64,000 bases of DNA from an uncultured bacterium (GCA_963713855.1 OY970209.1:1440001-1504000); one strand, 5' to 3'. Shown: positions 29,888 through 56,958, counted from the stretch's first letter. A program made the numbers and translations. The notes: generated by a model from the sequence alone, not told the origin.

Positions 29888-30160
29888 GATAGGTTTTACC
29901 AGACTATTCGAGATCAGACCATTGGCGTTAATATCCAGCTCGAGCAACTCCAAGAGGACCAAGATAATTATTACGTTACAGCAAAATGCCTTCTGGGTTT
30001 AGCTAATCGAGCATTTGAACTTTTTACAAGTTCTGAAATTGAAGAAAAGCGACAGGTTATGAAACTTGTACTATCGAACGTCGAGATGGCCGGAAAAGCG
30101 CTCTACGACGTTCAACCGCCATTTGATATGATCCTAAAATGTTCGGATCGTCAACTATGG
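29888..30160 (+). pseudogene. 3' remnant of the large serine recombinase (copy 1)
   Basis: Aligns to 56609-56884 (EDNYY.TAKCLLGLANRA...KCSDRQLW). Confidence 0.92.
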
Positions 30161-30192
30161 CGTACCTAAGAGACTTATTCAGGAACAGAGAA
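30132..30192 (+). repeat. R1: attP-like junction (recombinase arm + right arm)
   Basis: TCCTAAAATGTTCGGATCGTCAACTA-TG-GCGTACCTAAGAGACTTATTCAGGAACAGAGAA (one G missing). Confidence 0.88.
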
Positions 30193-30277
30193 ACAAACTA
30201 GACACATTTTCACGTGCTTTAAGAATAGCTACGTGAAACACTAACCAAAAATACCTGCTCTTTCAAAGCTTATGCTG

Positions 30278-30559
30278 CTACTTCATTTCTCTGAACATTT
30301 TTAAATGCTTATTTTCGTCATTCATAAACACTTTCAGTTGACTCATATTGTAGCCATATCGCTCAAAAAGACCTCGAAGCTCAAGCAAGTCTAGCTTGGG
30401 TATATTTTTTGATACGACATACACGTATACCTCTTTCCCAATTCCCTTACATCCTATTACAGATTTAATCTTTTTAAGCCACTCAAACATTGCATCTTCA
30501 TCATATTGAGGAGAATAAAAGGTGAGCGGAGTTAATATAAGAGTAACTTGATCATTCAT
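30278..30559 (-). CDS. Putative immunity protein for the upstream Ntox37-like toxin
   Basis: Directly downstream of the toxin; FYSPQYDEDAMFEWLKKI..LLELRGLFERY..MSQL. Confidence 0.75.
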   Translation of the reverse strand: MNDQVTLILTPLTFYSPQYDEDAMFEWLKKIKSVIGCKGIGKEVYVYVVSKNIPKLDLLELRGLFERYGYNMSQLKVFMNDENKHLKMFREMK

Positions 30560-30566
30560 AATTTTT

Positions 30567-31450
30567 CTATTTAGTAGGAGGTCTAGTTTTTCCGCCGGGA
30601 TAGATATTATTTACACGATCTCCATCGGGATTTACAATATCCAATGTGGACCGGCATGACCATAAGGACCGCTTGGTACCCAATAGTTGCCATCTTTATC
30701 TGGCCAACCATGCTGATCAGTTTCGGGATGAGGCTGCTTTTTCCCATCAGAATTTTTGGGAGGAATATATCCATCTTTTTCACCAGGCTTATCAGGAATG
30801 GAAAGGTCATAAAGACGGTTGAACTCTTCCTAATTTGCAGTTCTTCCTGATGCACCAAACAACTTTTTAAAAGCTCCATTTACAAAGAATTTTGAAGCTA
30901 TTCCACCTAAAGTAGCGAGAACTCCCATTCCTACGGCATTCCAGCCAACAAAAGCTAAACCTTGGCCTGCTCCCCATGCAAAAAGCGGTATTATATTATG
31001 CACTAATATATCTTCTCTTGATACACAGAAATTATGATACTCCTCTACGGTAAGATCATAAGCAATATCATGAGTAACTATTTCTAAGATATGACCAACT
31101 TTAACGAACTCTAAGCAATTTTTTAAAAGTGAATGGCCTACTTTGAGCTCTTCTGCTTTTACCCACTTTCCTTCTAAAGGGAGATAAAATATGTGATCAT
31201 CTGCTACAACTATTTCCTCGCCATTAACAACAACGCGAAAAAAACGTGAAGCTCCTTTATGTTCTATATGCGTAACACTTCTCTCAATACAAGAGCCCTT
31301 AAAATCAAAACAAATGACTTTATCACCTTCTTTAAGCTCTTCTATTGGTATGTAGCCATTTGAGACTTTAACTAAAGTTCCACTTAAAAACCCTTCTCCT
31401 CGAGCAACGTTTATCGCCAAGAAACATATAAGTATTAAGATTCTTTTCAT
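30567..31450 (-). pseudogene. Hint-domain polymorphic toxin with Ntox37-like C-terminus, disrupted
   Basis: Signal + Hint (GFLSGTLV...YDLTVEEYHNFCV..ILVHN). In-frame TAG at 30830-30832, then PGEKDGYIPPK..GWPDKDGNYWVP..GHAGPHW, a 1-nt frameshift near 30641, then DIVNPDG..NIYPGG. Confidence 0.85.
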
Positions 31451-31663
31451 GCTTTTTCTCTTTAGATATTTCTAACGTACAATCAAATCTGCTTCAGTGT
31501 AGAATGAACTTTAATAAAGTCAACGGTGTGTTTGCTTGCAAGACAGTTGCTGTTAACAAGAAAGAAAACATAAATCAGGGCTGCGGTTAGAAAATGATGA
31601 GCTTAAAATTATTGAGGTTTTTAAAGCGGCTTAAAAACCTCTACCAAGACAGTATAGATAATA

Positions 31664-31714
31664 CCAGCCTTTAAGTGCTGGCGGCACCTAAGCGACGCAT
31701 TCGGAAATAGAGAG
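31664..31714 (+). repeat. R2: hairpin + right arm
   Basis: CCAGC-ctttaagt-GCTGG CGGCACCTAAGCGACGCATTCGGAAATAGAGAG. Confidence 0.9.
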
Positions 31715-31763
31715 ATTAAACCAAACTTACTTTTTAAAATAGGAGATCTCTTTAATTTCTTAC

Positions 31764-32828
31764 TCAATAAGTAATGGCAATAGTTTTGTCTTTACAATTT
31801 ATATGCACCAGCCCACCATTAGGAACAACTATTTGCGGGTCTGTATGACCAAAATTCAGATTAAAAACAACAGGAAGATTAGCGTTGTAATCCTGCAAAG
31901 CTTGCTGAATTGCTTCTCTCTGATTTGTTACATAGTGCCCTCTACCTTCAGGCGGCAACATATGCATAAACTGCGTCTTTGGTAACCCAACTAAGATAGC
32001 TTTCAATCGCCTAAGTATGTTACGCTCAGCAAGTGCCGCAACAAAGCGATAAATAAATCCAGAACTTGGCAACTCTTCTGATGTCTCAATATATAAGACA
32101 ATATCATCATGCTTTTCAAATTGGGGAAGATAATAGGGACTATTTACAGCAAGCTGTAAGTCCAAAACTTCTAAACAGCCTCCCCATAACCTACCCGATA
32201 GTACGCTATCATCACAATTATACCATTCCCAATTCGGAGTCCTTTCCATAGGACGCTTAATGAAAAGTTTACTTGTGTCACTCCAATCAAAATCATAATC
32301 AGTATATTCCGCGGGCTTATTTATATAACCAACTTCAGTATCAAACAAAGCCTTTTTTATAGAATTAATAGTGTAATCATGCATAGCACCTTGCATACCA
32401 AATTGCGACATAAGTGCACCGCCATAGTAAGAAATTAAGCCAAGATTCCATAATAAAACATGTATATTGGTTATATCACTATACCCTAGAAATATCTTAG
32501 GGTGAGCTAAAATAATTTTGCGATCTAAATAAGGCAAAATTCGAATACAATCACTTCCACCAGTTGTAGCAATTATTGCTTTAATTGAAGCATCTTCAAA
32601 AGCTGTATTGATGTCATCAGCACGTGCTTCTGGATTACGCGACAAATATTCTGGGCTTTTACGAGTAGTAGGCAATTCTATGGGAATAAGATTGAAAATA
32701 GTCTGCAAACGCCGAATACCAAGTTCGTAGACTTGGGGAAATAAGTAAGCACATGCTGCTGATGGAGATACAATAGCGACTTTGTCACCAGGTTGTAAAC
32801 GTGATGGTATAATAAAAGAGGCACTCAT
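31764..32828 (-). CDS. S66 peptidase (LD-carboxypeptidase / MccF-like)
   Basis: GDKVAIVSPS, ARADDIN, TGGSD, GYSDIT, GGCLE, YIETSE, FGHTDP. Confidence 0.93.
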   Translation of the reverse strand: MSASFIIPSRLQPGDKVAIVSPSAACAYLFPQVYELGIRRLQTIFNLIPIELPTTRKSPEYLSRNPEARADDINTAFEDASIKAIIATTGGSDCIRILPYLDRKIILAHPKIFLGYSDITNIHVLLWNLGLISYYGGALMSQFGMQGAMHDYTINSIKKALFDTEVGYINKPAEYTDYDFDWSDTSKLFIKRPMERTPNWEWYNCDDSVLSGRLWGGCLEVLDLQLAVNSPYYLPQFEKHDDIVLYIETSEELPSSGFIYRFVAALAERNILRRLKAILVGLPKTQFMHMLPPEGRGHYVTNQREAIQQALQDYNANLPVVFNLNFGHTDPQIVVPNGGLVHINCKDKTIAITY

Positions 32829-32830
32829 AG

Positions 32831-33334
32831 TTACAACTTTCTATTTCTTACCTTTCTCTTAAGCTTACCACGTTCTTTTTCTATAATTTTCTGATCTTGG
32901 GCATACCAAAGCATTTCTTCGGTATTTTTAAGTTTGCGCAAAAGCAATATGTTATGACCCCAAGCGAATCTAAAGACAGGAAGATTTTCAAAAAGTGGCA
33001 CAGCTTGTGCTACTTTTTCGTAAGCTAAGAAAAAAGCCTTCATTCTAAATATATTACTTCTTGAAAACCCTTCTATTCCAGGAAAAGCATTTTGTAAATC
33101 TTTGACAAGACGCTCAATGATCTGAGACCCCCAATGGCTAATCTCTTGTTTCTCTGTTATTGTTTTGCCTAAAGAGTAATGGAGTTTGATTAACTCTTTG
33201 TTTCCCCAAACAGCTGCTTTAATCTGAGACTCATAGATTTGTCTCTTCAGCGCTAATAGTATCTTAGTATAATCTTTAGCTAGAGCGAGAGTCGGCTTAG
33301 ATGTAGTTTCGCTTTTTTTCTTTATGCTTTTCAT
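32831..33334 (-). CDS. DUF1016/YhcG N-terminal domain only (truncated)
   Basis: QIKAAV..NKELIKL, WGSQIIERL..DL, GFSRSNIFRMKAF, WGHNILL; no nuclease half. Confidence 0.8.
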   Translation of the reverse strand: MKSIKKKSETTSKPTLALAKDYTKILLALKRQIYESQIKAAVWGNKELIKLHYSLGKTITEKQEISHWGSQIIERLVKDLQNAFPGIEGFSRSNIFRMKAFFLAYEKVAQAVPLFENLPVFRFAWGHNILLLRKLKNTEEMLWYAQDQKIIEKERGKLKRKVRNRKL

Positions 33335-33458
33335 TGAGTTCTCTCTACATAGTTCTTTAGCAAAAGCGATTTTGCTGGTAATTTTATCTTTTAATAATAA
33401 ACAAAAAACTTCCTAGAAAGGTGATAACCGCTTTTGAATGGTCTTATCGTAATAGATC

Positions 33459-33793
33459 TTGCAATTACCGTCAAACCTGGATATACCCACTTTTGATCTA
33501 ATAATCACTTCTTAATGAAGGATAAGCCAACGACCGTACTACTAACATATAGCGCGTATGAGCGTCGAGGAAGTACGTTCAAATTTGGCTCGCATAACTT
33601 CAAAGATGCAGATGCTTCAGCATCAGCGTCGAGCTCCTTCAAGCAGTAAGCTCATTCCTAGCCTAATGGTCCGAATGTCAGCTTCCATTTTAAGCGTCAA
33701 AGCTTACACGAAGCTTTTTCAATACTTTAAGCAAATTACACAACACACGATCAGCATAACTCATATGGCAAGGGCCATGAGGAAAACTATGTT
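33459..33793 (+). ncRNA. Promoter + conserved structured leader/ncRNA, copy A
   Basis: TTGCAA-17-TATACC; homologous to 51849-52158 with a covarying stem. Confidence 0.6.
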
Positions 33794-34031
33794 TTTGATT
33801 TATTTTTGAGTTCTGACGTAGAAGAGAAGCGTCATATTATTAAACTTGAGAGTGGAAGCTGAGTATGTCCTCTATGACGTTCAACCGCCATTCGATGTGA
33901 TCCTAAAATGTTCGGATCGTCAACTATGGCGGTACCTAAGCAACGCATTCAGGAATCGAGAAGCAAGCTTAAGGCAGTTACCAGCCTCTTTAAAAACTCT
34001 TGATACATTTTGCAGACAAAATGTCCTTTAA
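33794..34031 (+). pseudogene. 3' remnant of the recombinase (copy 2) with its attP-encoded tail
   Basis: LFLSSDVEEKRHIIKL...LYDVQPPFDVILKCSDRQLWRYLSNAFRNREASL... Confidence 0.9.
33901..33962 (+). repeat. R3: intact attP-like junction
   Basis: TCCTAAAATGTTCGGATCGTCAACTA-TG-GCGGTACCTAAGCAACGCATTCAGGA; 26-bp arms symmetric about TG. Confidence 0.92.
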
Positions 34032-34078
34032 AAGCTTAATCTATTGACTTTTTTTCCAATTTATTGGACAATTGCTCT

Positions 34079-34399
34079 ATGAGAGTAGTACTTAAAAAAG
34101 TTTACAAGCTTTATAAAACTCCTGAATATGGTGCTTGGCTTGAACAACAGACTTTTAAGTCCCAAGTACAGATTGCTGATCGCCTCTCTAAAATAGAATT
34201 AGAGGGACATTTCGGTAATCATAAATTTCTTGAAAATAATATTTGGGAGTTAAAGTGGGAAAATGGCAGAAGAATTTACTATGCCTATATTAGCTCTTTA
34301 GATATTTTAGTTTTACTTGGGGGAAATAAGAATGGGCAGAACAAAGACATTACACAAGCAAAAAGAATCTACAGAAAAAATGTTGAAACAGAAGATTAA
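34079..34399 (+). CDS. RelE/HigB-like addiction-module toxin
   Basis: WL..QIADRL..GHFG, IWELKW..GRRIYY, LLGGNKNGQNKDI. Confidence 0.88.
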   Translation: MRVVLKKVYKLYKTPEYGAWLEQQTFKSQVQIADRLSKIELEGHFGNHKFLENNIWELKWENGRRIYYAYISSLDILVLLGGNKNGQNKDITQAKRIYRKNVETED

Positions 34400-34676
34400 A
34401 AAAAGTGCTCAATTAAAACCTTACAATCCAACTGAAGATCTTTTAGATGAGAATTTTATTGGTAAAGCAATTTTAGAGTGTTTAAAAAATAATGATCCTG
34501 AGGGTGTAATGGAAGTGCTTTCGGTATATTTAAAAACAGTTAATAAGGTTAAATCTGCCCAACAAGCAAATATTGCACGTTCAACACTTTATCATAGCAT
34601 CAAAAGCAAAAATCCTACCATCAAGACATTGGCTAAGCTTGTTTCAATTCATTCATTAGAGTTTCGCACAAAGTAA
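34380..34676 (+). CDS. HTH addiction-module antitoxin
   Basis: Overlaps toxin end; IARSTLYHSI..NPTIKTL. Confidence 0.85.
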   Translation: MLKQKIKKSAQLKPYNPTEDLLDENFIGKAILECLKNNDPEGVMEVLSVYLKTVNKVKSAQQANIARSTLYHSIKSKNPTIKTLAKLVSIHSLEFRTK

Positions 34677-35025
34677 GCTGTTGGCAAGAAATTCTGTTAA
34701 TCGTCTTATAAAGAATGGAAAGTGCACAAATTTTGAGTATATCGAGATAGCGGGGCAAATGTACTTAAGGTGCTTTGGATCGGGAGCATAGAGGTAATGA
34801 AATTATAGGCTAAGAGAAAGTTAGCACTGGGTATCTAAGCTCAAATAGAAGTTGAAGCTTATCGAGAGCCTTATCATTCGTCTTGCCGGTCGCATTCAGT
34901 GTAGCATATTGATTACCACGAATATGAAATGCTCCCTTACGATCTCTCTAAACCCTGAATCCTTTATTAGCAAGACTAGCACGAAATCTTGTATGATCAA
35001 GCATCGTTTGCTCCCCCTCAAAAGA

Positions 35026-35076
35026 CCAGCTGTAAAAAGCTGGCGTTACCTAAGCGATGCATTCAGGAATAAAGAA
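35026..35076 (+). repeat. R4: hairpin + right arm
   Basis: CCAGCT-gtaaaa-AGCTGG CGTTACCTAAGCGATGCATTCAGGAATAAAGAA. Confidence 0.9.
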
Positions 35077-35158
35077 GTTAGACTAGATTTACGCTATCAT
35101 GCTATTCACGTCTCGTTATATAGATTTGTTAAATAACTAATATTTTGAAGCAAAGCGA

Positions 35159-36400
35159 TTAAGCAAGCCGTTTCATGTTCCACACAGCATACGCTTTTTC
35201 AATTTGTTGGCGAATTTGTGATGGTGGAATAAAAAGATAAGCATAGTTTTTTACCACTTCACCAGACTGACAAATGCCTTTTTGTTCCCATGCGTTGATA
35301 AGAGTTGCAATGTTAAATTCATGTGCAATGAGAAAGCCTATTATATAAAGGGCTCTCTCAACATGCGACGGATGTCGATCGGATAAACCTATTGTAATAA
35401 TACTTGGCTTTTCGTCTTCTTCTTCAGAAAGAAGTATGGTTATAAAGTTTAGTATGGCACTCATTTCTCCTAACTTTAAAAGTTGTCTCAATGCGAAAAG
35501 GTCAGCTCGTTGCTCAGTTGTTCGCTCATATAACGACAGAAGCTTGTTCTTTTCGCCTTCGGGCGGGATCCAAAGGAAACCGTAACGCTTAAGCACTCTT
35601 TGAGCTTCTGGCTCGGCTAATGCTTCCACTAATATTTTTCCGATCTTTGTATGACCGAAAGAAGGGAGTGTATGTATGCCAAGCTCTAGATAATCTTTAA
35701 TATCTTTTTGGTCGGATTTTACTAAAGGCTCGTTTAGGAAGCCCTGCATATCAACATCTCGAGTATCTCCGTGAACAATATGTCCGATCTCATGATAGAG
35801 GGTATACAGTCGAGAATCCAAATCAGGTGTTTTACACATGATTATATAGCTCTTCAAAGGTTTAGTGACTGCTTCACCAGCAAAGGATTTGGTTGTACTA
35901 AGGGCCCTTACTTCTTCTTGAAGACCCGCCAAACGTACGCCTTCGTCAACCAGTTTTTTCTGCATCGCTGTTGGTATTTCAACACCTTTTTCTTTAATAA
36001 GCAAATCAAGCTCAACTTCAGTTATTACTTCCTTTAGCCATGTTCTATCTATCCCATATATTGAAGAAGCTGGTACTAGTCCAAGAAGCTCTCTTAAAAA
36101 ATTGTAAGGATATAATAATATGTTCGGCCTCACACTAAGGTTAGGCTGAACAAGTCCATAATTAGCTCGATAAGCAACATTTTCTAGCCAATCAAAAAAC
36201 GTCAAGTCAGATTTGTCCAACTCTTTTAACAGCTCTTGTTTCCAACTCTTGTAATCTTTTCCTTCCACAGTGGGTTTTTCATTATAAACAAAGCTTCCTT
36301 TGTCAAAATCCATTACAAGGGTTATTCCACGAGGTGTTTTGCCATAACTGACTACAGTGAAGGCAAAAGATAAAATAATCGCTTGCATGATTTTTTTCAC
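35159..36400 (-). CDS. Exported M48-like zinc metalloprotease with one YNxLRE repeat
   Basis: YHEIGHIVH, TEQRADLFA, RHPSHVERALY. Confidence 0.8.
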   Translation of the reverse strand: MKKIMQAIILSFAFTVVSYGKTPRGITLVMDFDKGSFVYNEKPTVEGKDYKSWKQELLKELDKSDLTFFDWLENVAYRANYGLVQPNLSVRPNILLYPYNFLRELLGLVPASSIYGIDRTWLKEVITEVELDLLIKEKGVEIPTAMQKKLVDEGVRLAGLQEEVRALSTTKSFAGEAVTKPLKSYIIMCKTPDLDSRLYTLYHEIGHIVHGDTRDVDMQGFLNEPLVKSDQKDIKDYLELGIHTLPSFGHTKIGKILVEALAEPEAQRVLKRYGFLWIPPEGEKNKLLSLYERTTEQRADLFALRQLLKLGEMSAILNFITILLSEEEDEKPSIITIGLSDRHPSHVERALYIIGFLIAHEFNIATLINAWEQKGICQSGEVVKNYAYLFIPPSQIRQQIEKAYAVWNMKRLA

Positions 36401-36976: not shown

Positions 36977-37032
36977 CCAACTACTTTTTAAAGAGCTGGC
37001 GGTACCTAATTGACGCCTTCAGGAATAGGCAA
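36977..37032 (+). repeat. R5: hairpin + right arm
   Basis: CCAACT-actttttaaag-AGCTGG CGGTACCTAATTGACGCCTTCAGGAATAGGCAA. Confidence 0.88.
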
Positions 37033-37161
37033 GTAAGGCTTTTGTATATTTAAGCTGACTTTTAGTTTTACTAAAGAGAAACTTTGCTAAAGCATACTAT
37101 TATGCTCTTTCTACAGTAAATTATTGACATGCTATACTACACAGTGGTATGGTATAAGCAC

Positions 37162-37512
37162 GTGCTTAGAAATATTACCAACAACCTATTTCAGCAAAAT
37201 GAAAGACAATCTTCTAAAAAAGAGACAACTCTTTTAAGAAGATTATGATGTATTTCTTGAAGAATTAGCCAAAAACCCAGATTCAGGTGATGTGATTTCT
37301 GGCACAGGTGGTGTTCGAAAGATACGATTAAAATCAGCATCCAAAAGAAACGTGGTGGGTTTAGAGTTTGCTACTTTTACTTTCAGGCAAAGGAACGAAT
37401 ATACCTGTTTTATATCTTTGGAAAAAATGAGCAAGAAAAGATAACAGAAGAAGAGAAGAAAATTCTTAGGGACTTAGCAAGCTATTTTGAGAGGGGTTCA
37501 GAGCGTGAGTAA
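37162..37512 (+). pseudogene. RelE/HigB toxin, disrupted
   Basis: LAKNPDSGDVISGTGGVRKIR..KRGGFRVCYFY..GKNEQEKIT by hand translation; TAA at 37235 and frameshift near 37345. Confidence 0.85.
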
Positions 37513-37822
37513 ATTATTCAAAGCTTTAAAAGCAGGCTTCGAAGAAGCTATTGCACACGATCAAGGAAAGTTACAGCTTCGCTCAGAATGCATAGAGATT
37601 CCAGAACCACCTGCTCAATATAAAGCTAAAGAAATAAAGAAAATAAGAGAAAAAAATAAATATTCCCAAGCTATTTTTGCAAAGGTTCTTAACGTAAGTG
37701 TTAAAACCGTACAATCATGGGAATCGGGACAACGTGTCCCGAGCCAATCAGCATTACGCCTTCTTGAAATCGTAGAAAAAGGAATTTATAATCCTCAAAT
37801 TTATAGAAAATCAATTAGTTAG
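37505..37822 (+). CDS. HigA-like Xre HTH antitoxin
   Basis: IKKIREK..SQAIFAKVLNVSVKTVQSWESGQRVPS. Confidence 0.9.
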   Translation: MSKLFKALKAGFEEAIAHDQGKLQLRSECIEIPEPPAQYKAKEIKKIREKNKYSQAIFAKVLNVSVKTVQSWESGQRVPSQSALRLLEIVEKGIYNPQIYRKSIS

Positions 37823-37907
37823 ATGACGAATTACTGCCACAGAACAGTTGATTTATCCTAATCTCTTTCTTTACTTATTCTTTAAAGAGCTATTAAAAGC
37901 ATTGTTT

Positions 37908-37961
37908 GCCAGCTTTATTAAGCATTGGCGGCACCTAAGCGACGCATTCAGTAAAAGAGAA
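37908..37961 (+). repeat. R6: hairpin + right arm
   Basis: GCCAGCTT-tatt-AAGCATTGGC GGCACCTAAGCGACGCATTCAGTAAAAGAGAA. Confidence 0.9.
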
Positions 37962-47934: not shown

Positions 47935-48008
47935 GTACGCTTACCTATTTTTCATAAACACAACACAATAGGCAAAAATATTTTATTTAGCATAGTTTCT
48001 AAACAAAC

Positions 48009-50285
48009 TTAACGCCCCAACCAATATCCTAGCTTTGTAATGATTTTGTATACCTTACTTAGAGATGACATGCTTTCTCTGTAAAGAGATTCTTGCTGAC
48101 GAATCCACTTAAAATCAAGCTGTTTTAATGACCATATATGAGGGCTTTTTGCAGTCTCATCTAGAAGTAGATTATAGCAACAAAGAGCTTCTTGCTCATG
48201 ATAGTTTGATAACGTGCTAGAAACTTCTTGTGCTTCAAATTCATCAAGGTGAAAGTTAAGCTGCTTAATTAATTCCCTTATTGTAAGCATAGTAATATGA
48301 GTATCATTATAATATTCATACCAGGCTGCATAATAAGTTTCCTGCATCCAAAGAAAATTAATCTCGGCAAAGGAAACTGCTGGAGATTGACCCAAAAGCT
48401 CTCTAAGCAGATTGTAATTATAAAGAGCTTGTAATTCATAATCAGCAGGCTTAGAGATAACACGCTCCATTTCGCGTTGAGCAATATAGTAAAAGTGCTT
48501 TATAGATGAAAAAAGCATATTTACTTGCGCGTAAAGAGTTGTTAATCCCTCTCTCTGCCAGCTGGCCTCAACATGCATTTTCCACTGTTTGAAAGATTCT
48601 GTTGTTGCATCTTGTTGCCATATTTGCTGCGCTTTTGAAAAAACTTCATTATTGACAGCATCTTTAGATGATGCAGCAAAAGCGATGCTTGGTTTGTGTG
48701 CTTGAATGTCTTTCTTTGAATACCATTCATCAAATGCTTGATTAATATCTAGACCCTTATCCACCAAGAAACCTATCATATAGAGTGCTCTCTCAAAGTT
48801 TGAAGGATGCTCATCTTCATTGCCATACGCAGTGATATAATTTGATAAAGCATAAAGTTCAATAGTTGCTAAAATAGGATCTAACTTGCCAAGCTTCAGA
48901 AGCTTATCACATGCAAAGAGGTCTGCTTGCTGCTCATACTCTCGCGCAAGAGTTGTTTTCTTGTATTCGTAATCATTCAGAGGAAGCACCCATAATGGCA
49001 ACATACTTGATACTATACTGTTAATAGTTTTTCCCAAGCGTGTTTTATTGGTAAAAGCTTTTTTTCCTATATTGATAAATTTGCTAATCTTCTCTCTCCC
49101 TTGGATAAAATCATCGCTGGATAGCAGTAAATCAATTTCTTCTAGAGAAATAGTGTTATTCCGCATTTCAGGAGTTTTATCATGCTTAAGCATGATGTGT
49201 CCGAGTTCATGGTAAAATACTTTATATTGGTGATTATGCTCATTCGCCAATCCTAAAACAATATAAAAGTTTATTCCATTACCATAGGCATTTGTTCCGC
49301 CTTTCCCTTTACGTACAGCTAAAACAATACTATCATCTAGATGAAATGCTTCTCGTGCTTCTGTCAAAATATTTTCTAAAATATCTGGTGCTAATTCATA
49401 ATGATATTTTTCAAGAAATTCGTTAAGTAAAGCTTCTTTTCTTATACTTTCAATCCAAGGGTAATCTATTTCGGTAATGGTTTTAGCATTGTCCAAATGT
49501 AACATTTCTCGCAACAAATTATAGCAATAAAGAAATCTCTTTTTAAAAAAAAGATTGTTTGAATCCGCTCTAAATTCTTTTAAAGCATTTTCTATTTTTA
49601 TTAAAATATCAACTATCTTGCAAGCAAATGACTCTATTTTTCTTTTTTTCCACTCCTGCTTGATTTCGTCATTCCATGTTACATAGACATGATCGTAAAG
49701 CCAATCGCTATCTATAGTGCTTAAAAAAGTTCGACCAAGCGGAAATTCACTTAGTTCGTTTAGAAGATTATAATTAAAAAGAGCTTGTCGTTTATGGGCA
49801 CCTATGGGTTCATTATTAGAGTTTAAAAAATGATTAAGTGACGTTACCAATTTGTTTTTTTGCTCTTTTTTAGTATCTATCCCTTGTTTTTCCCATATCT
49901 GTTTTTTCTCTTCTTTCCATAGAGGGTATACACAGTCATTAATCCACGTATCATCTATTTGATCTAAGGTGTGTATTAAAGGAAAAGATAAACTTTCTCT
50001 TAAGAAGTTGTATGTTACTAGCACCGCTCCTTGATAAAAGCTATTATTAAGATTTTGCCGTAGAGCGCTTAAATCGTGATCAAAGCGGTAAATCAAGTCC
50101 AGAATACGGTCTTCAGGTGGCTGCTTTGACCAAAAATACTCTAGAGCTTGTTTCCAGTCACTGTAAGAAAATTTTGATGTCTCTGTATATGGTATTGTGT
50201 TTTCTGCTTTTAAGAAAGAGGGTAACGTATATAAGCCAATGGAAAACAAAAGCGCTATTCCAACTATAAATTCCTTATAATTCAC
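48009..50285 (-). CDS. Exported M48-like zinc metalloprotease flanked by five YNxLRE repeats
   Basis: YHELGHIML, YEQQADLFA, EHPSNFERALY; paralog of 35159-36400. Confidence 0.82.
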   Translation of the reverse strand: MNYKEFIVGIALLFSIGLYTLPSFLKAENTIPYTETSKFSYSDWKQALEYFWSKQPPEDRILDLIYRFDHDLSALRQNLNNSFYQGAVLVTYNFLRESLSFPLIHTLDQIDDTWINDCVYPLWKEEKKQIWEKQGIDTKKEQKNKLVTSLNHFLNSNNEPIGAHKRQALFNYNLLNELSEFPLGRTFLSTIDSDWLYDHVYVTWNDEIKQEWKKRKIESFACKIVDILIKIENALKEFRADSNNLFFKKRFLYCYNLLREMLHLDNAKTITEIDYPWIESIRKEALLNEFLEKYHYELAPDILENILTEAREAFHLDDSIVLAVRKGKGGTNAYGNGINFYIVLGLANEHNHQYKVFYHELGHIMLKHDKTPEMRNNTISLEEIDLLLSSDDFIQGREKISKFINIGKKAFTNKTRLGKTINSIVSSMLPLWVLPLNDYEYKKTTLAREYEQQADLFACDKLLKLGKLDPILATIELYALSNYITAYGNEDEHPSNFERALYMIGFLVDKGLDINQAFDEWYSKKDIQAHKPSIAFAASSKDAVNNEVFSKAQQIWQQDATTESFKQWKMHVEASWQREGLTTLYAQVNMLFSSIKHFYYIAQREMERVISKPADYELQALYNYNLLRELLGQSPAVSFAEINFLWMQETYYAAWYEYYNDTHITMLTIRELIKQLNFHLDEFEAQEVSSTLSNYHEQEALCCYNLLLDETAKSPHIWSLKQLDFKWIRQQESLYRESMSSLSKVYKIITKLGYWLGR

Positions 50286-50431: not shown

Positions 50432-50476
50432 ACAGCTTGATCTTAAGAACTGGCAGTACAAGGCGACGCTATTCAG
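50432..50476 (+). repeat. R10: degenerate copy
   Basis: ACAGC-ttgatcttaaga-ACTGG CAGTACAAGGCGACGCTATTCAG. Confidence 0.6.
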
Positions 50477-50678
50477 TTTTCTTTAGCGCTTTGAGATTTA
50501 TGTAATCATGTATTAATGTTTCAGTTAATTTCTGCTTTTTATATAAGCAATATTCAAGGCTATCTGCAATTGTTGACAATATATTACTTAGGCATCCAAG
50601 CTCGCTTTCTATGCTTGCTTCACGATAATATAAGTATATCCCATGACGATTTTTGATTATTTCTACAGGTTCGTTCAT
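50469..50678 (-). CDS. Small hypothetical protein (69 aa), sole content of a 270-bp cassette
   Basis: ATG at 50678 with AGAGGAG RBS; lies between R10 and R11. Confidence 0.55.
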   Translation of the reverse strand: MNEPVEIIKNRHGIYLYYREASIESELGCLSNILSTIADSLEYCLYKKQKLTETLIHDYINLKALKKTE

Positions 50679-50703
50679 TAACTTGCTCCTCTTATTTAGC
50701 AAT

Positions 50704-50756
50704 GCCAGCCTTTTAAGCGCTAGCGGCATCTGGTTGACGCATTCAGGAACAGAGTG
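50704..50756 (+). repeat. R11: hairpin + right arm; left end of the recombinase-bearing element (TG mutated to TA)
   Basis: GCCAGC-cttttaagc-GCTAGC GGCATCTGGTTGACGCATTCAGGAACAGAGTG. Confidence 0.85.
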
Positions 50757-50833
50757 ATTGAGCCAGAATTACAAAAGGCACCATTTCTCATACATTAGAT
50801 TGCTGATGCTCAACTTAAATTTAAGACTTAATA

Positions 50834-51637
50834 TCATAACTCCAACACAGTGGGCACGTCGATCTCTTTAAAGATTATAAAAATACGCTCAAAGCCTTTT
50901 TTTATATGACTATCAATAGCTCTAAGTCTTTTAATTGCCTCTCTATAACTAGACCTGTCAAAGCCTGTTCCACTAGTTATTATTAACCACATAGCTATTG
51001 TGGTATCGTTTACAATAGATCGCAGTTCCTTTGTGCGCTTTAATTCCTTCTTTTCAATCAAGCTCCTTAAATGTTCTGGATCTTCTGGTCCATTTTTAAC
51101 TTGTATACGATTAATAAAAAATACTCTGTGCTGGCTAATCCCAGATAAGCTATAATACGGGAACTTAAAAATAAAAGTTTCGTTATACGTTAAAAATCGT
51201 GCTGAATCAATTGCTATTTCATTTATAAAACTCGAAAAGTCCTCCCTAGAAAGATATAATCTCCCGGCTTGAAAACATTTCTTTAAGTAATTCGATAATT
51301 TGTGGGCAAGAAAGTGGCCTCCTCTCCTTCCGATAATAAACTTACTAACGTTTATAAGCAGAGTATATTCATTAGGAACCCAAGCGGAAATCAACTGATT
51401 CAGCTGTTTAATTCGCTTTATATCATTATTGTCGTCTTCTCTCAACTGATTGTGTGAAATCTCAAGATAAACCTGTTTATTATCAATCATCGCAGAGAAA
51501 TCTGGAAATGTTTTAATTCCATTAGGCTCATACTTTTCCTCCTCTATAAGACTCCCTTCTTTATGATGCAAGTGGTTTTTAATGATTTCAAAAGCTTCAA
51601 ATTCTTTTACTTTCGCTTGCGTAAACATTTTCGACAT
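50834..51637 (-). CDS. Hypothetical protein with PD-(D/E)XK-like nuclease motif
   Basis: N-terminal E..A, then TFPDFSAMIDNKQVYLEIS. Confidence 0.55.
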   Translation of the reverse strand: MSKMFTQAKVKEFEAFEIIKNHLHHKEGSLIEEEKYEPNGIKTFPDFSAMIDNKQVYLEISHNQLREDDNNDIKRIKQLNQLISAWVPNEYTLLINVSKFIIGRRGGHFLAHKLSNYLKKCFQAGRLYLSREDFSSFINEIAIDSARFLTYNETFIFKFPYYSLSGISQHRVFFINRIQVKNGPEDPEHLRSLIEKKELKRTKELRSIVNDTTIAMWLIITSGTGFDRSSYREAIKRLRAIDSHIKKGFERIFIIFKEIDVPTVLEL

Positions 51638-51848
51638 CCTGTATTTTTATGTGCGCTCTAAAAATTACTTTCAATTTCGTAAAAAAGCATTATGGAATTT
51701 AGAAGCTTTCTTACTTAAGTATCAATCTATTTAAGAGTCTTTACTAAAACATGGCATATTTAATCTATGTAAAAGCTCTTAATTGTCCAACTAGCTGTTG
51801 GACTTTTCATACACAAGATGATAGATAGAAATAAAACGTTAATAAATC

Positions 51849-52153
51849 TTGCAATCACCATCAAGCATCCATATACTCATCTTTATCTAATAATCACTTC
51901 TTAATGAAGGGTAATCCAATGACTGTACTACTAAAATATAGCGCATATAAGCGTTTAGAAAGTACATTCACACTTGGCTTATATAACCCGCAAGATAGAC
52001 TTTGCTTGTTCGAACTACAAGCTTATTCGCATCAACCCGAATGTTAGCTTTCTCTTTAACCGCCAAAGCTTATATAAAACTTTTTTAATACTTAAATAAA
52101 GTCAATAGATGATCAGCACATATCTCTTGTAGTTAAGAGTCGTGAGGAAGACT
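51849..52153 (+). ncRNA. Promoter + conserved structured leader/ncRNA, copy B, upstream of the rep region
   Basis: TTGCAA-17-TATACT; homologous to 33459-33793. Confidence 0.6.
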
Positions 52154-52420
52154 ATGTTTAAAAGAGATCCTCCGGCTAGGCCAAAGGCAATTTTGACCAT
52201 TGATCAGCGTAATAAATTTGCACATTTCTTTATCTTGCTTATGACTATTGATAAGCAATTACAAAAGAAAAGCAAATCAAAAGAAATAAAGAAATCAAAA
52301 ATCAAACTAAATGACGAGACAAGCTTCACCACTAGGCGAACCTTGTTTTTCTTACTAGCTTATTTATCTTTAAGTAGTCAAAGAGCTCCCCAACCCTGCA
52401 CTTGTGAGAGAATGCTTTAA
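52154..52420 (+). CDS. Small basic hypothetical protein of the element backbone
   Basis: GAGGAA RBS and ATG conserved in both leader copies. Confidence 0.5.
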   Translation: MFKRDPPARPKAILTIDQRNKFAHFFILLMTIDKQLQKKSKSKEIKKSKIKLNDETSFTTRRTLFFLLAYLSLSSQRAPQPCTCERML

Positions 52421-52642
52421 AGAGTGCATTGTATTTGAAACGAAGCTAAGAAACATCTGACGAATGGACACCATCTTTCACTTTCTATGCTATCGATGAA
52501 AACTGCCACCAGTAATGGCAGAATTAGAAAGTAGCCTAAGCATCGCATTACCTAACCTAATTACGCAGCAGTTGCTGCGCAATTGATTAAGATTTATCCT
52601 TAGCTGAATGATTCGCAAAGAGAGGAATCGATAAAGTAATTT

Positions 52643-53760
52643 ATGATAGATACTGTCGTTTTAATACTGAGCCAAGATATGTATCATATCAGTGAGCCTG
52701 ATAAGTTTGTACCATCTGCTCGATGGATTGGCAATCCATCGCCAGCTCTTCATGGTATTTGCTCTAAGCAAAACCCCACTAAAAAAGAGCTGTTAAGTCG
52801 CATATATAAGCCACGCCTTCTCTTTCATATCACTATAACAAGGAAAGCAAACAAGAAATAACACTTAAAATTGAGCTTTCATTACCCAAACTAGTTTTTG
52901 GCAATAACTTCAATGAGCTCATGCGTAAAGACTTTACCTCAATACTACAAAAGCTAGTTTATGTGCTCAAAGAAATGGGAGTCATAGTAACCGAAGAAGT
53001 GCTCACGAAGGCGCCTGTTTCCGCTATTCATTATTCTAAGAATATTCCCTTAACTGACGGTTCTTTACCTTACCATTTCATTAACAAAGCCAAAGAAGCC
53101 AATCTTAAGTTGTCACTAGATACTAATCAAACAGATTATAGCGATGGTCATAGCTATAAATGGCATTGTAATTCCTATGAAGTTGTCTTTTACGACAAGA
53201 TCAAAGACCTTGAAATGGCTAAAAAGAGTAGTAAGCGTGCATTAGAAAAGGACAGTGATGTACAGCTCAATCTTTTCGAAGCTTTGCGTAAAAGAAAGAA
53301 GTTTGAAGTTTTACGCATAGAAGTTCGGCTTAATAAGCGCCAGAAAATGAAGCAGCTTTTTAAAGATCTTGAGATTATATCAAACCTCACTTTGAAGAGT
53401 TTGTTCAAGCCGGCTATCTCCAAAAAAGTTTTATTACATTACCTTGATGAGTTAGAAAGGAAAAGGCCGGCTTTGCTTGATTATAGAACATCAAGTGATC
53501 AAGCACTCTTAGCTGCTTTAGTTATTAATAACTCCAAGCTGAATCCGAAAGCTGTCCTTCAAATGTTCGGCCTAAAAAAAGCTTTAGAAACAGTTACAGC
53601 TCGTGAGCTGAGAATTATCTTTGCTAAACATCATTCAAGAAGCTGGAATCGCCTTATAGCTGACGTTCAGAAGCTAAAGCTCCCTATAGCACAACGTTCT
53701 TTGACAGTTCTAAGGGATTTGATCAAAACTAAGCCCTTAAGATTACCAATCTTGCGTTAA
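52643..53760 (+). pseudogene. Putative rolling-circle replication initiator (phage/plasmid gene II/X, Rep_trans-like), one frameshift
   Basis: MIDTV..., YKPRL|TLS...LKIELSLPKLVFGNNFNEL, AIHYSKNI, VFYDKIKD, LRIEVRL; 1-nt loss near 52820 joins the two ORFs. Confidence 0.7.
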
Positions 53761-53786
53761 TGTAACTTTTATATTACACTTATAGC

Positions 53787-54116
53787 ATGAGCTTGATAAA
53801 AATTATTATTTACTCTACAAACACAGGCAAAGAGCCTTATTCCGAGTGGGAAGATGGACTTGATAAGATGGCAGTAGCTATCGTTAAAAACAGATTAGAC
53901 CGGATTCGCCTTGGTAATTTTGGTGATGCTAAAATGATCAAGGAAGGAGAGGGAATTTGGGAACTGCGCATCGATTTTGGTCCAGGCTATAGGATTTATT
54001 TTGGAAAGAAGGGAAAAAAAATCATTATCTTATTAGTGGGTGGTGAAAAAAGGAGTCAAAGCCGCGATATTGAAAAAGCAAAGCGGTATTGGCTTGACTG
54101 CGAGGGGTTATTATGA
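53787..54116 (+). CDS. RelE/HigB-like addiction-module toxin
   Basis: GKEPYSEW, RLDRIRLGNFGDAK, IWELRIDFGPGYRIYF, GGEKRSQSRDIEKAK. Confidence 0.93.
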   Translation: MSLIKIIIYSTNTGKEPYSEWEDGLDKMAVAIVKNRLDRIRLGNFGDAKMIKEGEGIWELRIDFGPGYRIYFGKKGKKIIILLVGGEKRSQSRDIEKAKRYWLDCEGLL

Positions 54117-54415
54117 AAAGAAGATTTAGGGATTATCAAGAAAAACTTTACGAAGACTTAAAAGACTCAGAATTAGCTAGCGCCTATCTTAACGTAGCGC
54201 TTATGGACGAAGATCCACGCATCTTTTTACTTGCATTAAAGAATGTTTATGAGGCTCAAGGTGGAGAAATGGCTGATCTTGCTCGAAAGACAAAATTAAG
54301 TCGCGAAAATCTTTATCGCATTCTTTCGGAAAAAGGCAATCCCAAGCTCACGAGTATCGTATCTTTGCTTAATGCTGTAGGATTCTCTCTTGCCGTGCAA
54401 CCTCGTAAGAAATAA
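54113..54415 (+). CDS. HTH addiction-module antitoxin
   Basis: ATGA overlap with the toxin; LSRENLYRILSEKGNPKL. Confidence 0.93.
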   Translation: MKRRFRDYQEKLYEDLKDSELASAYLNVALMDEDPRIFLLALKNVYEAQGGEMADLARKTKLSRENLYRILSEKGNPKLTSIVSLLNAVGFSLAVQPRKK

Positions 54416-54465
54416 CCTTTGTAAGATAAACCATAAGCGTCAAAAAACAGATTTTAGTTTTTAAA

Positions 54466-54837
54466 TTATTTACAGAATAAGTTATCAAGATAGTTGTTAA
54501 CCTCTTTCAACCCACTTACTAAGGATGAAGGCAAAAGCTTTTTAGCAGCTTCTCGGCTCATGCCAGCTTTACTTATTCCTTCAAAATGTAAATGTTCTAG
54601 GTAGGACACATAGAAAGCATTTTTCAATTCTGGGTCGGCAATTCTAAAGAAACGATCAGCTATTTTGAAGTATTTTTTTAATAACTCAAAATTGCTCGAA
54701 TCAATTGCTTTTTGTGTAGCGTTAGCAAAGCGAGACATTTCGAGATGGCATAATCCAGCAATTGTTTTATCTTGGAGCTCATGTTGTAATTCAGGGAATT
54801 CATGAGATAGCAATTCGAAAAAATCTCTACAAGTCAT
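54466..54837 (-). CDS. Probable orphan immunity protein
   Basis: EFPEL..HLEMSRFA..ELKNAFYVSYLEHL pattern; no toxin adjacent. Confidence 0.6.
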   Translation of the reverse strand: MTCRDFFELLSHEFPELQHELQDKTIAGLCHLEMSRFANATQKAIDSSNFELLKKYFKIADRFFRIADPELKNAFYVSYLEHLHFEGISKAGMSREAAKKLLPSSLVSGLKEVNNYLDNLFCK

Positions 54838-55036
54838 CTTTTATACCTTTTCATAGTAGGCAGTCTTAAGTTCATTTTATTGCTTGATGAATTTTAACAC
54901 AAAAGTTCAAGATGGCTTAGAAAGCCCAAGGTCGTTTATAATTGAAAGAAGGATGGGATTATTAAGTTCATGGTAGCAATATGCTTCAAAGTATTCTTTA
55001 ATAAGTGTTATTTCTTGAGGATCCCATGCCAGCCAT

Positions 55037-55339
55037 TCAGCCTTGATAAAGAGCAACTTTAAGACAACAAAGAAGAGTTATTCTTGAAGCGAAGCCATTC
55101 TGGGATGCTAACTCAAGCACACGAGGCAAAAGTCGAGCTAAATTAGATTTTGATCCAGATGTGGTCATCCCATCTTTCAGGAAAACTGAAACATCCCAAT
55201 AATTAAGCGATTTTAGATCTAGAGCATTCAGATTATCTAGCGTATCCTGGTCAATGCAGCATGGACAGACATTTTCGATAAGAATTTGTGGATAGATACT
55301 AAAAATCAGATAAGCTTTTTCAAAATCAAAATACAGCAT
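55037..55339 (-). pseudogene. Hypothetical, immunity-like protein, frameshifted (continues toward ~54900 in another frame)
   Basis: CPCC..., MTTSG..NL..LLPRVLEL; after the shift AEWLAWDPQEITLIKEYF. Confidence 0.5.
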
Positions 55340-55435
55340 GATTTTTGGTCTTTGGCGTTTATTGACATTAAGATTTAAGATGTAGCGCTTTACTTGAAAA
55401 TATCAAGCTCAAAACAGAAATAAAAGAGACTAAAT

Positions 55436-56893
55436 ATGAAAGCCATACTTATCGCTCGCGTGAGCACAGAAGAACAAAAAGAAGCAGGTAATTCTTTACC
55501 AGCTCAAATTTCACGCCTTAAAAGCTATTGTGAAAGTAGAGATTTTGAGGTTATACGTACTTGTAGCTTTGATGAAAGTGCTTACTCTAATGACCGTTCT
55601 GAGTTTGACCGTATTATTGATTTTATCTTAAAGCAAAAAGAAAGGGTTGCTGTCTGCGCTGATAAAGTTGATAGGCTTTCGCGTAATGTCTTTGATAAAC
55701 GCATCTCTGTTTTATATGAAAAAGCACTGAGCGATGAAATAGAACTGCATTTTGTATCGGATGGTCAGGTTATTAATAGCCGTATATCAGCCGTTGAGAA
55801 GTTTCAGTTTAGTATTAGCTTAGGCCTTGCCAAGTATTATTCTGATGCCATAAGCGATAACGTTAAAGCGTGCCCACGAACAAAAGCTACGTAAAGGTGA
55901 ATGGCTTGCTAAAGCGCCTTATGGTTATAGAAATGTAAAGAATGCGAATGGCAATACTGACATTATCATTGACGATTATGCTTCTCAAATCGTTAAAAAG
56001 ACGTTTGAATTGTATGCGACTGGCTCTTATTCAATGGAATTGCTCTGTAAAAAGCTTAAGAATGATTATGGCCTTGAGTGGCCAAAAGGCTATTTAGGTA
56101 AACTCCTTGATAATCCTTTTTACTACGGCGTTATGGTCATCAAAGGGAAGGAATATCCTCATCGATACCCAACTGTTATTACCCAAGCTCTTTTTGAGGA
56201 AGTACAGAGCATCAAAGAGGGATTTAAGAAACAGCCTTTTAAGTACGCAGGTAAGCCATACGTCTATCGAGGTCTTTTACGTTGTGGCCACTGCGGATTA
56301 GCCATAACACCGGAAAAGCATAAAGGATTCGTATATTACCATTGCACGCAGTATAAAGGTAAGCACGGAGCAAAATGGCTTCGGGAAGAGGAAATCACGC
56401 GCCAATTAGTAAAGTTTTTAGGAATCTTCAAATACCAGAGTACATCCTAACAGAAATTACTCATACGCTCGATACTCTTCATAAGGATAAAATAGATTTT
56501 CATAACAAAGAGTTCGATAAGCTTACTACTGAACAGAAAACACTTACTAAGATGATTGATAATCTTTATATAGATAAACTCAAGGGGAGAATTACTGAGA
56601 GCGACTATGACAGATTTTACCAGTCTCTTAAAGATCAAAGCATTGATATTACTATTAGACTTGAGCAACTTCAAGAGGCTGAAGATAACTACTACCTTAC
56701 AGCAAAATGCCTTCTGGGTTTGGCTAATCGAGCATTATGAATTTTTACGAGTTCTGAAGTTGAAGAAAAACGGCAGGTTATGAAACTTGTACTATCGAAC
56801 GTCAGGATAGAAGCTGGAAAAGTGCTCTACGACGTTCAATCACCATTTGATTTCATCCTAAAATGTTCGGATCGTCAACTATGGCGGGGCTAA
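55436..56893 (+). pseudogene. Large serine recombinase (resolvase + recombinase + Zn-ribbon + coiled coil), with indels
   Basis: ARVSTEEQ, DKVDRLSRN, APYGY, NPFYYG, LLRCGHCG, YYHC. Indels near 55866, 56407 and 56735-56746. Ends ...KCSDRQLWRG* with the stop (56891-56893) inside the tRNA antisense. Confidence 0.93.
56856..56887 (+). repeat. attR-like junction: recombinase arm + tRNA-Asp 3' end
   Basis: TCCTAAAATGTTCGGATCGTCAACTA-TG-GCGG; left arm identical to R1 and R3. Confidence 0.9.
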
Positions 56894-56958
56894 CGAGACT
56901 CGAACTCGCGACCTTCCGCGTGACAGGCGGACGCTCTAACCAACTGAGCTATAGCCCC
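56882..56958 (-). tRNA. tRNA-Asp(GTC)
   Basis: GGGGCTATAGCTCAGTTGGTTAGAGCGTCCGCCT-GTC-ACGCGGAAGGTCGCGAGTTCGAGTCTCGTTAGCCCCGCCA. Confidence 0.97.

Follow-up and report, generated by a model that had tools for sequence, protein, structure and literature searches.

Here we describe an array of small foreign DNA units inserted behind a tRNA-Asp gene in the genome of an uncultured, protist-associated bacterium of the Dependentiae (Babeliales), which consists of one contig of 1,521,901 bp. The array lies in a stretch of 64,000 nucleotides (GCA_963713855.1 OY970209.1:1440001-1504000; hereafter the window), and positions are counted from the first nucleotide of the window unless stated otherwise. The array is a real stack of about eleven such units separated by copies of one repeat, and this repeat consists of the core TGGCGG followed by the first ~15 codons of the severed C-terminal end of the gene for a large serine recombinase (LSR), which is carried by the unit next to the tRNA. 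In this genome the repeat is confined to the one locus, while junctions of the same anatomy are spread across the order. We suggest that the stack probably arose as autonomous LSR elements, together with small units that lack a recombinase, inserted one after another and site-specifically at the CCA end of tRNA-Asp.

One repeat family divides the region behind tRNA-Asp

The repeat is ~46 nt long and is present in 10 same-strand copies and one degenerate copy, all between 30158 and 50766. An initial annotation of the window had described 11 repeats with TG cores that cut the region into units; when re-measured, all 11 positions and the unit sizes (1521, 2248, 1114, 1956, 929, 2050, 842, 7081, 2552, 270 and 6161 bp) were as given there. 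The TG core is likewise found in most copies, but the copy at 50721 opens with TAGCGG and the copy at 30158 has lost one G of the core. A repeat finder returned a single family of nine copies at the listed spacings together with the copy at 50721, and the 29-nt consensus matched eight sites on the plus strand with at most three mismatches as compared with none in 100 shuffles. Searching the whole genome with a profile of the repeat gave 10 matches (E from 4e-11 to 7e-7), all of them on the plus strand and in the window at 30158-50754, while the next best match had an E of 1.6; rather than being scattered through the genome, the repeat is confined to this locus. Decay has put the copy at 50451 out of reach of the profile, and it was recognised only by eye and with a loose pattern.

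On its right side, the stack adjoins three tRNA genes on the minus strand at 56882-57164 (tRNA-Asp, tRNA-Asn and tRNA-Val), which were the only hits of an Rfam search; the repeat matched no Rfam family. As the initial annotation had it, the last unit carries the LSR and stops at the TGGCGG at 56882, the complement of the CCGCCA end of tRNA-Asp. In the following, Pl denotes a left arm that consists of LSR tail, Hl a non-coding hairpin left arm and Pr the right arm of the LSR attachment site, the C-terminal coding end of the LSR. The two features that define this end of the stack are:

55436-56893, plus strand: LSR pseudogene, in frames 55436-55885, 55854-56411 and 56408-56887, the last with an in-frame TGA
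56882-56958, minus strand: tRNA-Asp gene, the CCA end of which is the shared core; attR of the form Pl / TGGCGG / tRNA

The repeats separate functional modules, a point on which the domain matches of the cargo agree with the initial annotation: a Gp49/HI1420 pair, a PT-HINT-Ntox33 gene with DUF4279, a PIN gene, an LD-carboxypeptidase and an ABC-transporter block. The genes in these units are on both strands. Because a leftover recombinase tail is present at 29885-30163, the stack extends to the left of the start assigned initially; its left border was not found, and there is no recognisable junction around the gene at 26472-27245.

The right arm is the severed end of the recombinase gene

The last unit (50721-56881) holds the Resolvase (PF00239), Recombinase (PF07508) and Zn-ribbon (PF13408) domains of the LSR in three frames, and the gene is broken by two frameshifts and one stop. 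This is the single serine-recombinase domain in the whole genome, which agrees with the initial description of most units as lacking a recombinase. With an intact relative as the query, the whole genome yielded the three LSR pieces and only two tails, at 29885-30163 and 33831-33932. An intact relative of the LSR matches the integrase family phrog_95 (5e-70). Membership in the Ccr family was considered and rejected, all scores being far under the cut-offs (CcrB 75 bits, cut-off 900; CcrA 72, cut-off 700; CcrC 33, cut-off 900).

The LSR frame crosses the junction into the tRNA and reads Trp-Arg-Gly-stop, so that its last codons and stop lie inside the tRNA gene. The repeats in the window extend this same frame past TGG CGG with Tyr-Leu-Ser-Asp-Ala-Phe-Arg-Asn-Arg-Glu-Ile-Lys. 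At 30 loci from across the order that were chosen by the Pr pattern alone, the frame was open for at least 30 codons past the core in 26; in the four exceptions (L092, L098, L102 and L105), some of which are probably chance matches, it spans 5-22 codons. The encoded peptide is conserved (W-R-Y-L-V-D-x-F-R-N-G-x-I-E-F-x-x-S-L-x-x-I-Q-T-V-F-S-S-F). Moreover, in codons 11-29, which are outside the search pattern, the entropy at the three codon positions was 1.21, 0.74 and 1.48 in a set of 27 sequences (the 26 open-frame loci and L085), and from this pattern we conclude that Pr is coding sequence. The repeats are in frame with the LSR tail, and such tails precede two of 10 junctions; these observations bear out the initial proposal that the repeats are recombination junctions tied to the LSR. 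Judged from the reading frames, the LSR gene of the excised form would be ~30 codons longer, and integration would cut the gene after Trp-Arg.

Among 16 sampled intact LSR genes, 11 end within a tRNA gene (Gln 4, Glu 4, Asp 2 and Arg 1); for the other five, which continue into other sequence, no tRNA was found. None of the 16 reads through into a canonical Pr, and the loci L104 and L113 of the order as well as L085, all of which have a Pl/Pr junction, hold tail remnants only and no intact read-through LSR. Three intact LSR frames (L129, L134 and L137 in genomes G147, G242 and G161) run 25-60 codons beyond the Trp with no tRNA nearby. Their tail is conserved-looking and different (..L-R-T-F-x-W-K/N..) and may represent a second tail family or an attP-type junction.

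A separate observation concerns tRNA-Glu of the same genome, where a second unit of ~4.3 kb is located at genome positions 351893-356169 (L119, 3894-8170). No recombinase homologue lies inside it, and its left end consists of a Glu-type core, TGGCGT, and a Pr with a 32-codon open recombinase-tail frame.

Left and right arms are exchanged around a six-nucleotide core

All four combinations of arms were found around TGGCGG. Pl/Pr is present at 30158 and 33927, in G001 (the sole other species of the genus) and at L085; Hl/Pr at the other eight of the 10 window junctions; Pl/tRNA in the window and in G003, G020, G039 and G174; and Hl/tRNA in G001, G004 and several other genera. This is as expected from reciprocal exchange in the core. 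We place the crossover somewhere in the 6-nt TGGCGG, of which the TG is one option: an ungapped dyad test gave 11 of 25 at TG, which is not decisively above a background of 6.6 +/- 2.3. Several copies in G001 away from the tRNA retain only GG and the right arm, which favours core positions 5-6 as the point of crossover. A Pl/Pr junction restores the long LSR frame even in the chromosome, and any effect of this on the activity of the enzyme is speculation.

Two further observations concern junctions of unusual form. In G001, a Pr without the TGGC core follows unrelated left flanks at L012, L015 and L024-L027, reading CGGGGG, AGTCGG, AGGTGG or ATCTGG at the position of the core; these copies may have been inserted at sites other than tRNAs or may be junctions that have decayed. 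In G003 (L094; region L070-L071), the sole Hl/core/Pr site near the tRNA-Asp element is 14 kb off and inverted, as would be in keeping with sites having recombined by inversion.

Conservation of the hairpin arm Hl extends across the order. Its short form, TGGCC(T/G)TGCCATACGAAGCTTTAGCGAAGTA, stands ahead of the core, and Hl occurs with the cores of tRNA-Asp (TGGCGG), tRNA-Glu (TGGCGT) and tRNA-Gln (TGGCTG). By eye, the left arms at the 30 loci selected by Pr comprise about 18 Hl, two Pl and 10 other sequences. Hl folds into an outer 7-bp stem around a variable inner stem, and the 3' strand of the outer stem is formed by the three pre-core bases and TGGC. In a reading of the dot-bracket structures, base pairing between the core and the upstream arm is part of the minimum-energy fold in 22 of 27 sequences (z-scores 0 to -5.3), and the three pre-core bases GTA, GAC, GAA and AGC co-vary with upstream TAC, GTC, TTC and GCT. 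Perfect 7-of-7 stems are formed at 8 of 23 Hl-like sites, which were picked by eye and are to that extent a weak basis for the count, as compared with 8.7% of 4000 control TGGC sites and with at most five in any of 300 shuffles. The copies at the junctions in the window have a simplified form, GCCAGC-loop-GCTGGC.

We also considered that Hl might be an ordinary tRNA trailer or a dispersed repeat, and rejected this: a profile of the consensus Hl has one good match only in this genome (56959-57000), and the Asn-Asp spacer in which that match lies is 0-12 nt in most genera, with Hl-like inserts in a few and two tandem copies in L060. Stems of 7-of-7 are present at 3 of the 38 tRNAs of this genome and a true Hl only at tRNA-Asn. 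A loose motif for the end of Hl was discarded as too unspecific, and a comparison by eye of Hl with mirror images of Pr or the tRNA gave only weak, shifting similarities. Hl could act as a left half-site through which the site next to the tRNA stays usable, replace the tRNA trailer or be a structure-specific site.

56959-57000, plus strand: lone consensus-type Hl hairpin against the 3' end of tRNA-Asn, in the Asn-Asp spacer

Two alternative explanations of the repeat turn on this arm. The geometry of Hl recalls that of attC, although its sequence is unrelated to the attC boxes, and the outer stem takes in the core, places the crossover region in the 3' arm and has co-varying pairs to the left of the core. 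It could accordingly be argued that the folded single-stranded hairpin is the true site, that a different enzyme acts on it in an integron-like manner and that the LSR elements are mere neighbours. We consider this very improbable. The only tyrosine recombinase of the genome (PF00589; genome positions 409347-409853) is encoded about 1 Mb from the array, and no tyrosine recombinase or other candidate enzyme was found among the open reading frames of the array; the arm that is constant at all junctions is Pr, i.e. recombinase coding sequence; recombinase tails interchange with Hl at the same core; and the array of G039 has no Hl.

The second explanation, that the repeat is a regulatory or RNA element such as a terminator, a leader or a small RNA that was copied along with the genes, could draw on the location of the hairpin where a tRNA trailer or terminator would be and on the tRNA-Gln array of G174, where copies of a terminator-like trailer stand in place of Hl as left arms. 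We give it hardly any credence: the repeat has no Rfam match, flanking genes point both ways, and it is homologous to and in frame with the C-terminus of the recombinase and is found at this locus only.

Units and junctions from left to right

The remaining features of the stack, in order of position, are:

29885-30163, plus strand: older recombinase 3' tail (Pl), 53% identical to residues 392-485 of an intact relative, with one stop
30158-30203, plus strand: junction 1, Pl / core with one G lost / Pr
30278-31450, minus strand: unit 1 cargo, N-terminal piece of a PT-HINT toxin and small open reading frames
31660-31724, plus strand: junction 2, Hl / TGGCGG / Pr
31764-33334, minus strand: unit 2 cargo, LD-carboxypeptidase (S66) and an N-terminal fragment of DUF1016
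33450-33932, plus strand: unit 2 remains of a recombinase element (repeat families), a stretch resembling 51840-52096 followed by a recombinase tail at 33803-33932
33927-33972, plus strand: junction 3, Pl / TGGCGG / Pr, attP-type
34064-34676, plus strand: unit 3 cargo, Gp49 (HigB-like)/HI1420-antidote toxin-antitoxin pair
35021-35086, plus strand: junction 4, Hl / TGGCGT / Pr
35159-36400, minus strand: unit 4 cargo, 413-aa secreted protein with a weak metalloprotease signature
36977-37042, plus strand: junction 5, weak Hl / TGGCGG / Pr
37487-37822, plus strand: unit 5 cargo, helix-turn-helix (HTH; MqsA/XRE-like) gene
37906-37971, plus strand: junction 6, Hl / TGGCGG / Pr
38100-39422, plus strand: unit 6 cargo, PT-HINT-Ntox33 toxin and DUF4279 (likely immunity)
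39486-39671, minus strand: unit 6 antidote fragment
39956-40021, plus strand: junction 7, Hl / TGGCGG / Pr, consensus copy
40160-40766, plus strand: unit 7 cargo, PIN-domain gene with a small open reading frame upstream
40798-40863, plus strand: junction 8, Hl / TGGCGG / Pr
40967-47475: unit 8 cargo, antidote gene, TetR regulator and ABC-transporter genes (partly fragmentary)
47879-47944, plus strand: junction 9, Hl / TGGCGG / Pr
48009-50285, minus strand: unit 9 cargo, 758-aa protein with no family match
50451-50496, plus strand: junction 10, decayed copy (TGGCAG...), missed by the profile
50702-50766, plus strand: junction 11, Hl / TAGCGG / Pr, attL of the resident recombinase element
52921-53760, plus strand: 279-aa core gene of the recombinase element family
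53787-54415, plus strand: Gp49/HI1420 toxin-antitoxin pair, cargo of the recombinase element

The resident element has TAGCGG at its left junction, and the counterpart of this junction in G001 has the same sequence, which fits long residence. Within this element, the Gp49/HI1420 pair has a second, incomplete counterpart in the stack: positions 41550-41900 in unit 8 are 93-94% identical to 54058-54411, a match that covers the end of the Gp49 gene and the whole HI1420 antidote gene, and the copy in unit 8 has lost the toxin. The unit to the left of 30158, unit 2 and the resident 6.2-kb element are certainly LSR elements or their remains. Unit 8, which has an antidote gene in common with the element, is less clear-cut as such a remnant.

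The product of the 279-aa core gene has no Pfam match even at E 10 and no match in NCBIfam or PHROG, and its AlphaFold model is poor (pLDDT 50.6). The gene adjoins the recombinase in all elements examined, with homologues at nine further loci, including one in an alphaproteobacterial metagenome-assembled genome at 47%. A protein-atlas pointer to Phage_CRI initiators, which is below the usual level of recognition, is only a lead towards a rolling-circle Rep.

The genes at 26472-27245, 35159-36400 and 48009-50285, all on the minus strand, encode three paralogous secreted proteins. The first two have weak metalloprotease-like matches and the third has no family match; the first, which is outside the recognised array on its left side, is homologous to a gene of the cassette that adjoins tRNA-Asp in G001. 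Far from the array, a barnase-like ribonuclease gene is followed by a barstar-like inhibitor gene at 3074-4028.

Related arrays in the order

The Pr pattern was found in 38 of 261 genomes of the order, whereas a reversed control pattern was found in three. LSR homologues (E up to 1e-30) are present in 93 of the 261 genomes; they occur in 29 of the 38 Pr-positive genomes and in 64 of the 223 others, counts in which related genomes are not independent. G001 has weaker arrays at tRNA-Asp, with two small units between a broken LSR and the tRNA, and carries LSR paralogues at tRNA-Gln and tRNA-Glu, of which the one at tRNA-Glu is intact.

The clearest parallel is found in G039 and G174, two species of one genus in a Babeliales family other than that of the window. 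Both have small units, an 11-14-kb element with an intact LSR and a Pl/TGGCGG/tRNA-Asp-Asn-Val end, in this order. Between its junctions, G039 carries as small units five complete toxin-antitoxin pairs, each about 700-850 bp long (in order ParE/RelB, Gp49/HTH, DUF5615/DUF433, Gp49 (frameshifted)/HI1420 and ParE/RelB), and these cassettes consist of the two genes of the pair with about 100 nt on each side. G039 and G174 have one cassette and its junction in common at 87% identity; homology breaks at the end of Pr, and the cassettes then differ. Differences of the kind that the initial annotation had asked for are thus present at the junctions, but in this sister system and not in the genus of the window.

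Closer relatives were sought in public sequence data. Three runs from biofilm metagenomes, in the form of contigs only, had 6-7% of words and contain a ~90-94% relative. Its contigs have single-base indels at the two frameshifts of the LSR in the window (55863 in two of three runs and 56407 in all three) and a further indel at 56737, beside the in-frame stop; going by these contigs, the LSR may be intact in this relative. The element stretch 53702-55436 is replaced there by about 1.4 kb of other DNA. The relative also has the unit 5 gene (37040-37798), with 4.8 kb of other DNA and then an LSR tail behind it, a layout as in G001, and window unit 5 may therefore be the stump of a full element. 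A metagenome scan with a degenerate Pr pattern returned five contigs, of which three are chance matches in unrelated DNA and two are relatives (L084 and L085), and none close to the window. A listed joint of 40016 to 47899 (side 30) was rejected as a deletion, as one repeat copy had been aligned to two places.

These comparisons bear on a further alternative, in which all units arrived as full LSR elements in tandem and then decayed in place. The small units would be leftovers of deletion, toxin-antitoxin pairs would have survived as their loss is harmful, and nothing would ever have moved in trans. Recombinase tails at two junctions, the element remains in unit 2, the antidote gene of unit 8 with 94% identity to that of the element, the homologue of the unit 5 gene at the head of complete elements in G001 and the metagenome relative, the many gene fragments and the piece of recombinase coding sequence at the start of every small unit all agree with this explanation, as does the homology between the toxin-antitoxin module of the element and a stand-alone cassette of G039 (71.5% identity). 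Decay in place would, however, require two deletions per unit, one of them ending precisely at the next core, whereas the left arms at 8 of 10 junctions in the window and ~18 of 30 across the order are the conserved Hl and not random deletion ends, and the five cassettes of G039 are complete pairs with only about 100 nt either side. Because eight Hl junctions and the tidy cassettes of G039 make two deletions per unit a poor explanation, we regard decay alone as unlikely.

Discussion

The reading that we favour, and consider probable, is serial site-specific insertion of autonomous LSR elements and small recombinase-less units at the CCA end of tRNA-Asp. Under serial insertion, elements would excise as circles with a whole LSR gene and insert at the CCA end of the tRNA, whereupon integration would cut the gene after Trp-Arg, the tRNA would supply Gly-stop and the last ~30 codons would land at the far (left) end of the element. 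Each newcomer would enter at the tRNA side and push older units outward, so that every unit would begin with Pr and end with Pl or Hl. Two kinds of units are envisaged, namely autonomous elements of about 6 kb with their remains and small one-module units without a recombinase, the latter most likely having been moved in trans by the LSR of a neighbour. Movement in trans, the order of insertion, the crossover place within TGGCGG and any role of the swapped C-terminus are what we infer from the arrangement of the arms.

Several observations weigh against serial insertion. Unit 2 contains what is left of a recombinase element, unit 8 and the resident element have antidote genes of 94% identity, and a homologue of the HTH gene of unit 5 heads complete LSR elements in G001 and the metagenome relative; several genes of the array are fragments, and several small units have the look of debris more than of orderly cassettes. 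Decay of the repeat does not rise or fall steadily with distance from the tRNA. Serial insertion leaves the role of Hl unaccounted for, and the array of G039 lacks this arm. The LSR is dead and the genome has no second copy; with its only LSR broken, the stack is now immobile in this genome. For this genus, neither circle junctions nor empty sites nor polymorphisms of single cassettes turned up in a sample made up of G001, which is too diverged, and the three contig-only runs of the ~90-94% relative. Finally, large serine integrases of the textbook type act on attP with attB only, and for units to stack, they would have to enter sites whose left arm is P-type or Hl, which is non-canonical.

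A more far-reaching reading is that the array belongs to a dedicated serine-recombinase system for gene capture, in which cassettes with a two-arm site would be taken up serially at the CCA ends of tRNAs. We put this forward tentatively and with more doubt than confidence. The system would be widespread in the Dependentiae and probably beyond, its cassettes would be 0.7-2 kb and mostly toxin-antitoxin or toxin-immunity pairs, and the arms of the site would be a structured hairpin and the C-terminal coding sequence of the recombinase itself. A cassette landing behind an element would then restore the C-terminus of the LSR and act as a switch between a resting and a capturing state.

The initial annotation had proposed a serine-recombinase analogue of an integron. 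Recombinase-less units and a serine enzyme are indeed present, but the array is not an integron in the strict sense. It resembles integrons in having an array of small cassettes, often toxin-antitoxin pairs, at one site, and the hairpin arm at most junctions recalls the cassette-end hairpins of integrons, the 3' arm of which contains the crossover region. However, it has no IntI, no attI/Pc platform and no co-orientation, with genes on both strands, and its recombinase, a serine enzyme, is encoded within the mobile unit next to the tRNA.

In composite islands of the staphylococcal cassette chromosome (SCC), ACME, an arginine catabolic mobile element, is flanked by the same direct repeats and moved by ccrAB of SCCmec, and the units excise singly or together (PMC7029739). 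SCC islands (SCCmec with ACME, COMER or pseudo-SCC; CcrAB/CcrC) are like the present stack in LSR-mediated insertion at the 3' end of one conserved gene, in a repeated site at each junction and in recombinase-less units within the stack. They differ in that the target here is the CCA end of a tRNA rather than rlmH and the recombinase is non-Ccr; in that units here are 0.3-7 kb and mostly of one module, many of them ending in a hairpin arm; and in that the recombinase gene here spans the site and is cut by integration.

The ssrA islands of Dehalococcoides (McMurdie et al. 2011) are in tandem and bounded by the ssrA 3' end or a direct repeat; 16 have a CcrB-like serine-recombinase module and 15 do not, and the module-less islands were proposed to be cis-mobilisable elements (CIMEs) gathered by accretion (PMC3146451). 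They have in common with the present stack tandem units beside a small-RNA gene, some of them without a recombinase. The Dehalococcoides islands are larger, with a 20-bp ssrA repeat and two recombinases (DsiA/B) at the attL side, whereas here the repeat has only 6 nt in common with the tRNA and otherwise consists of recombinase coding sequence. In CIMEs related to the integrative and conjugative elements (ICEs) ICESt1/ICESt3, recombinase-less units keep their att sites beside an autonomous element, and stacks form by site-specific accretion (PMC3146451). The present stack has this trait, unit 2 having retained Pr and a Pl tail and eight units Pr and Hl. The systems of ICESt1/ICESt3, in contrast, have tyrosine integrases and a long identical core, and no conjugation genes were seen here.

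In Prochlorococcus, tycheposons form tRNA islands in which successive integrations displace older elements outward and leave integrase remnants and partial tRNAs; 910 of 937 use tyrosine recombinases and a minority LSRs (bioRxiv 10.1101/2020.12.28.424599). Their junctions are partial copies of the tRNA, and no small-cassette arrays are described in the portion of that source available to us. A literature search found no paper on serine recombinases in Dependentiae and, as far as titles and abstracts show, none on integron-like cassettes of a serine recombinase, the matches being concerned with integrons or tyrosine recombinases. The system had initially been taken to be undescribed, a view that we do not uphold, as the stacks of SCC/ACME (PMC7029739) and Dehalococcoides (PMC3146451) already include recombinase-less units. 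We conclude that the array is a miniature relative of the stacked islands of staphylococci and Dehalococcoides rather than an integron of a wholly new kind, and that it is set apart from these and from tycheposons by the size and regularity of its units, the self-cut recombinase gene, the hairpin arm and the host group.

If the small units do move in trans, integron-like capture would have arisen on a serine-recombinase chassis in reduced intracellular bacteria. The stack would then serve the Dependentiae, in which few other paths for exchanging genes can be seen, as a small reservoir of toxin-antitoxin, toxin-immunity and transporter modules. Severing and rejoining of the recombinase gene in the reaction that its own product catalyses could provide control of direction without a separate factor, and a short structured arm may turn any DNA into a substrate. 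Because large serine integrases serve as tools for genome engineering, a natural family that stacks cargo at one tRNA would also be of practical interest.

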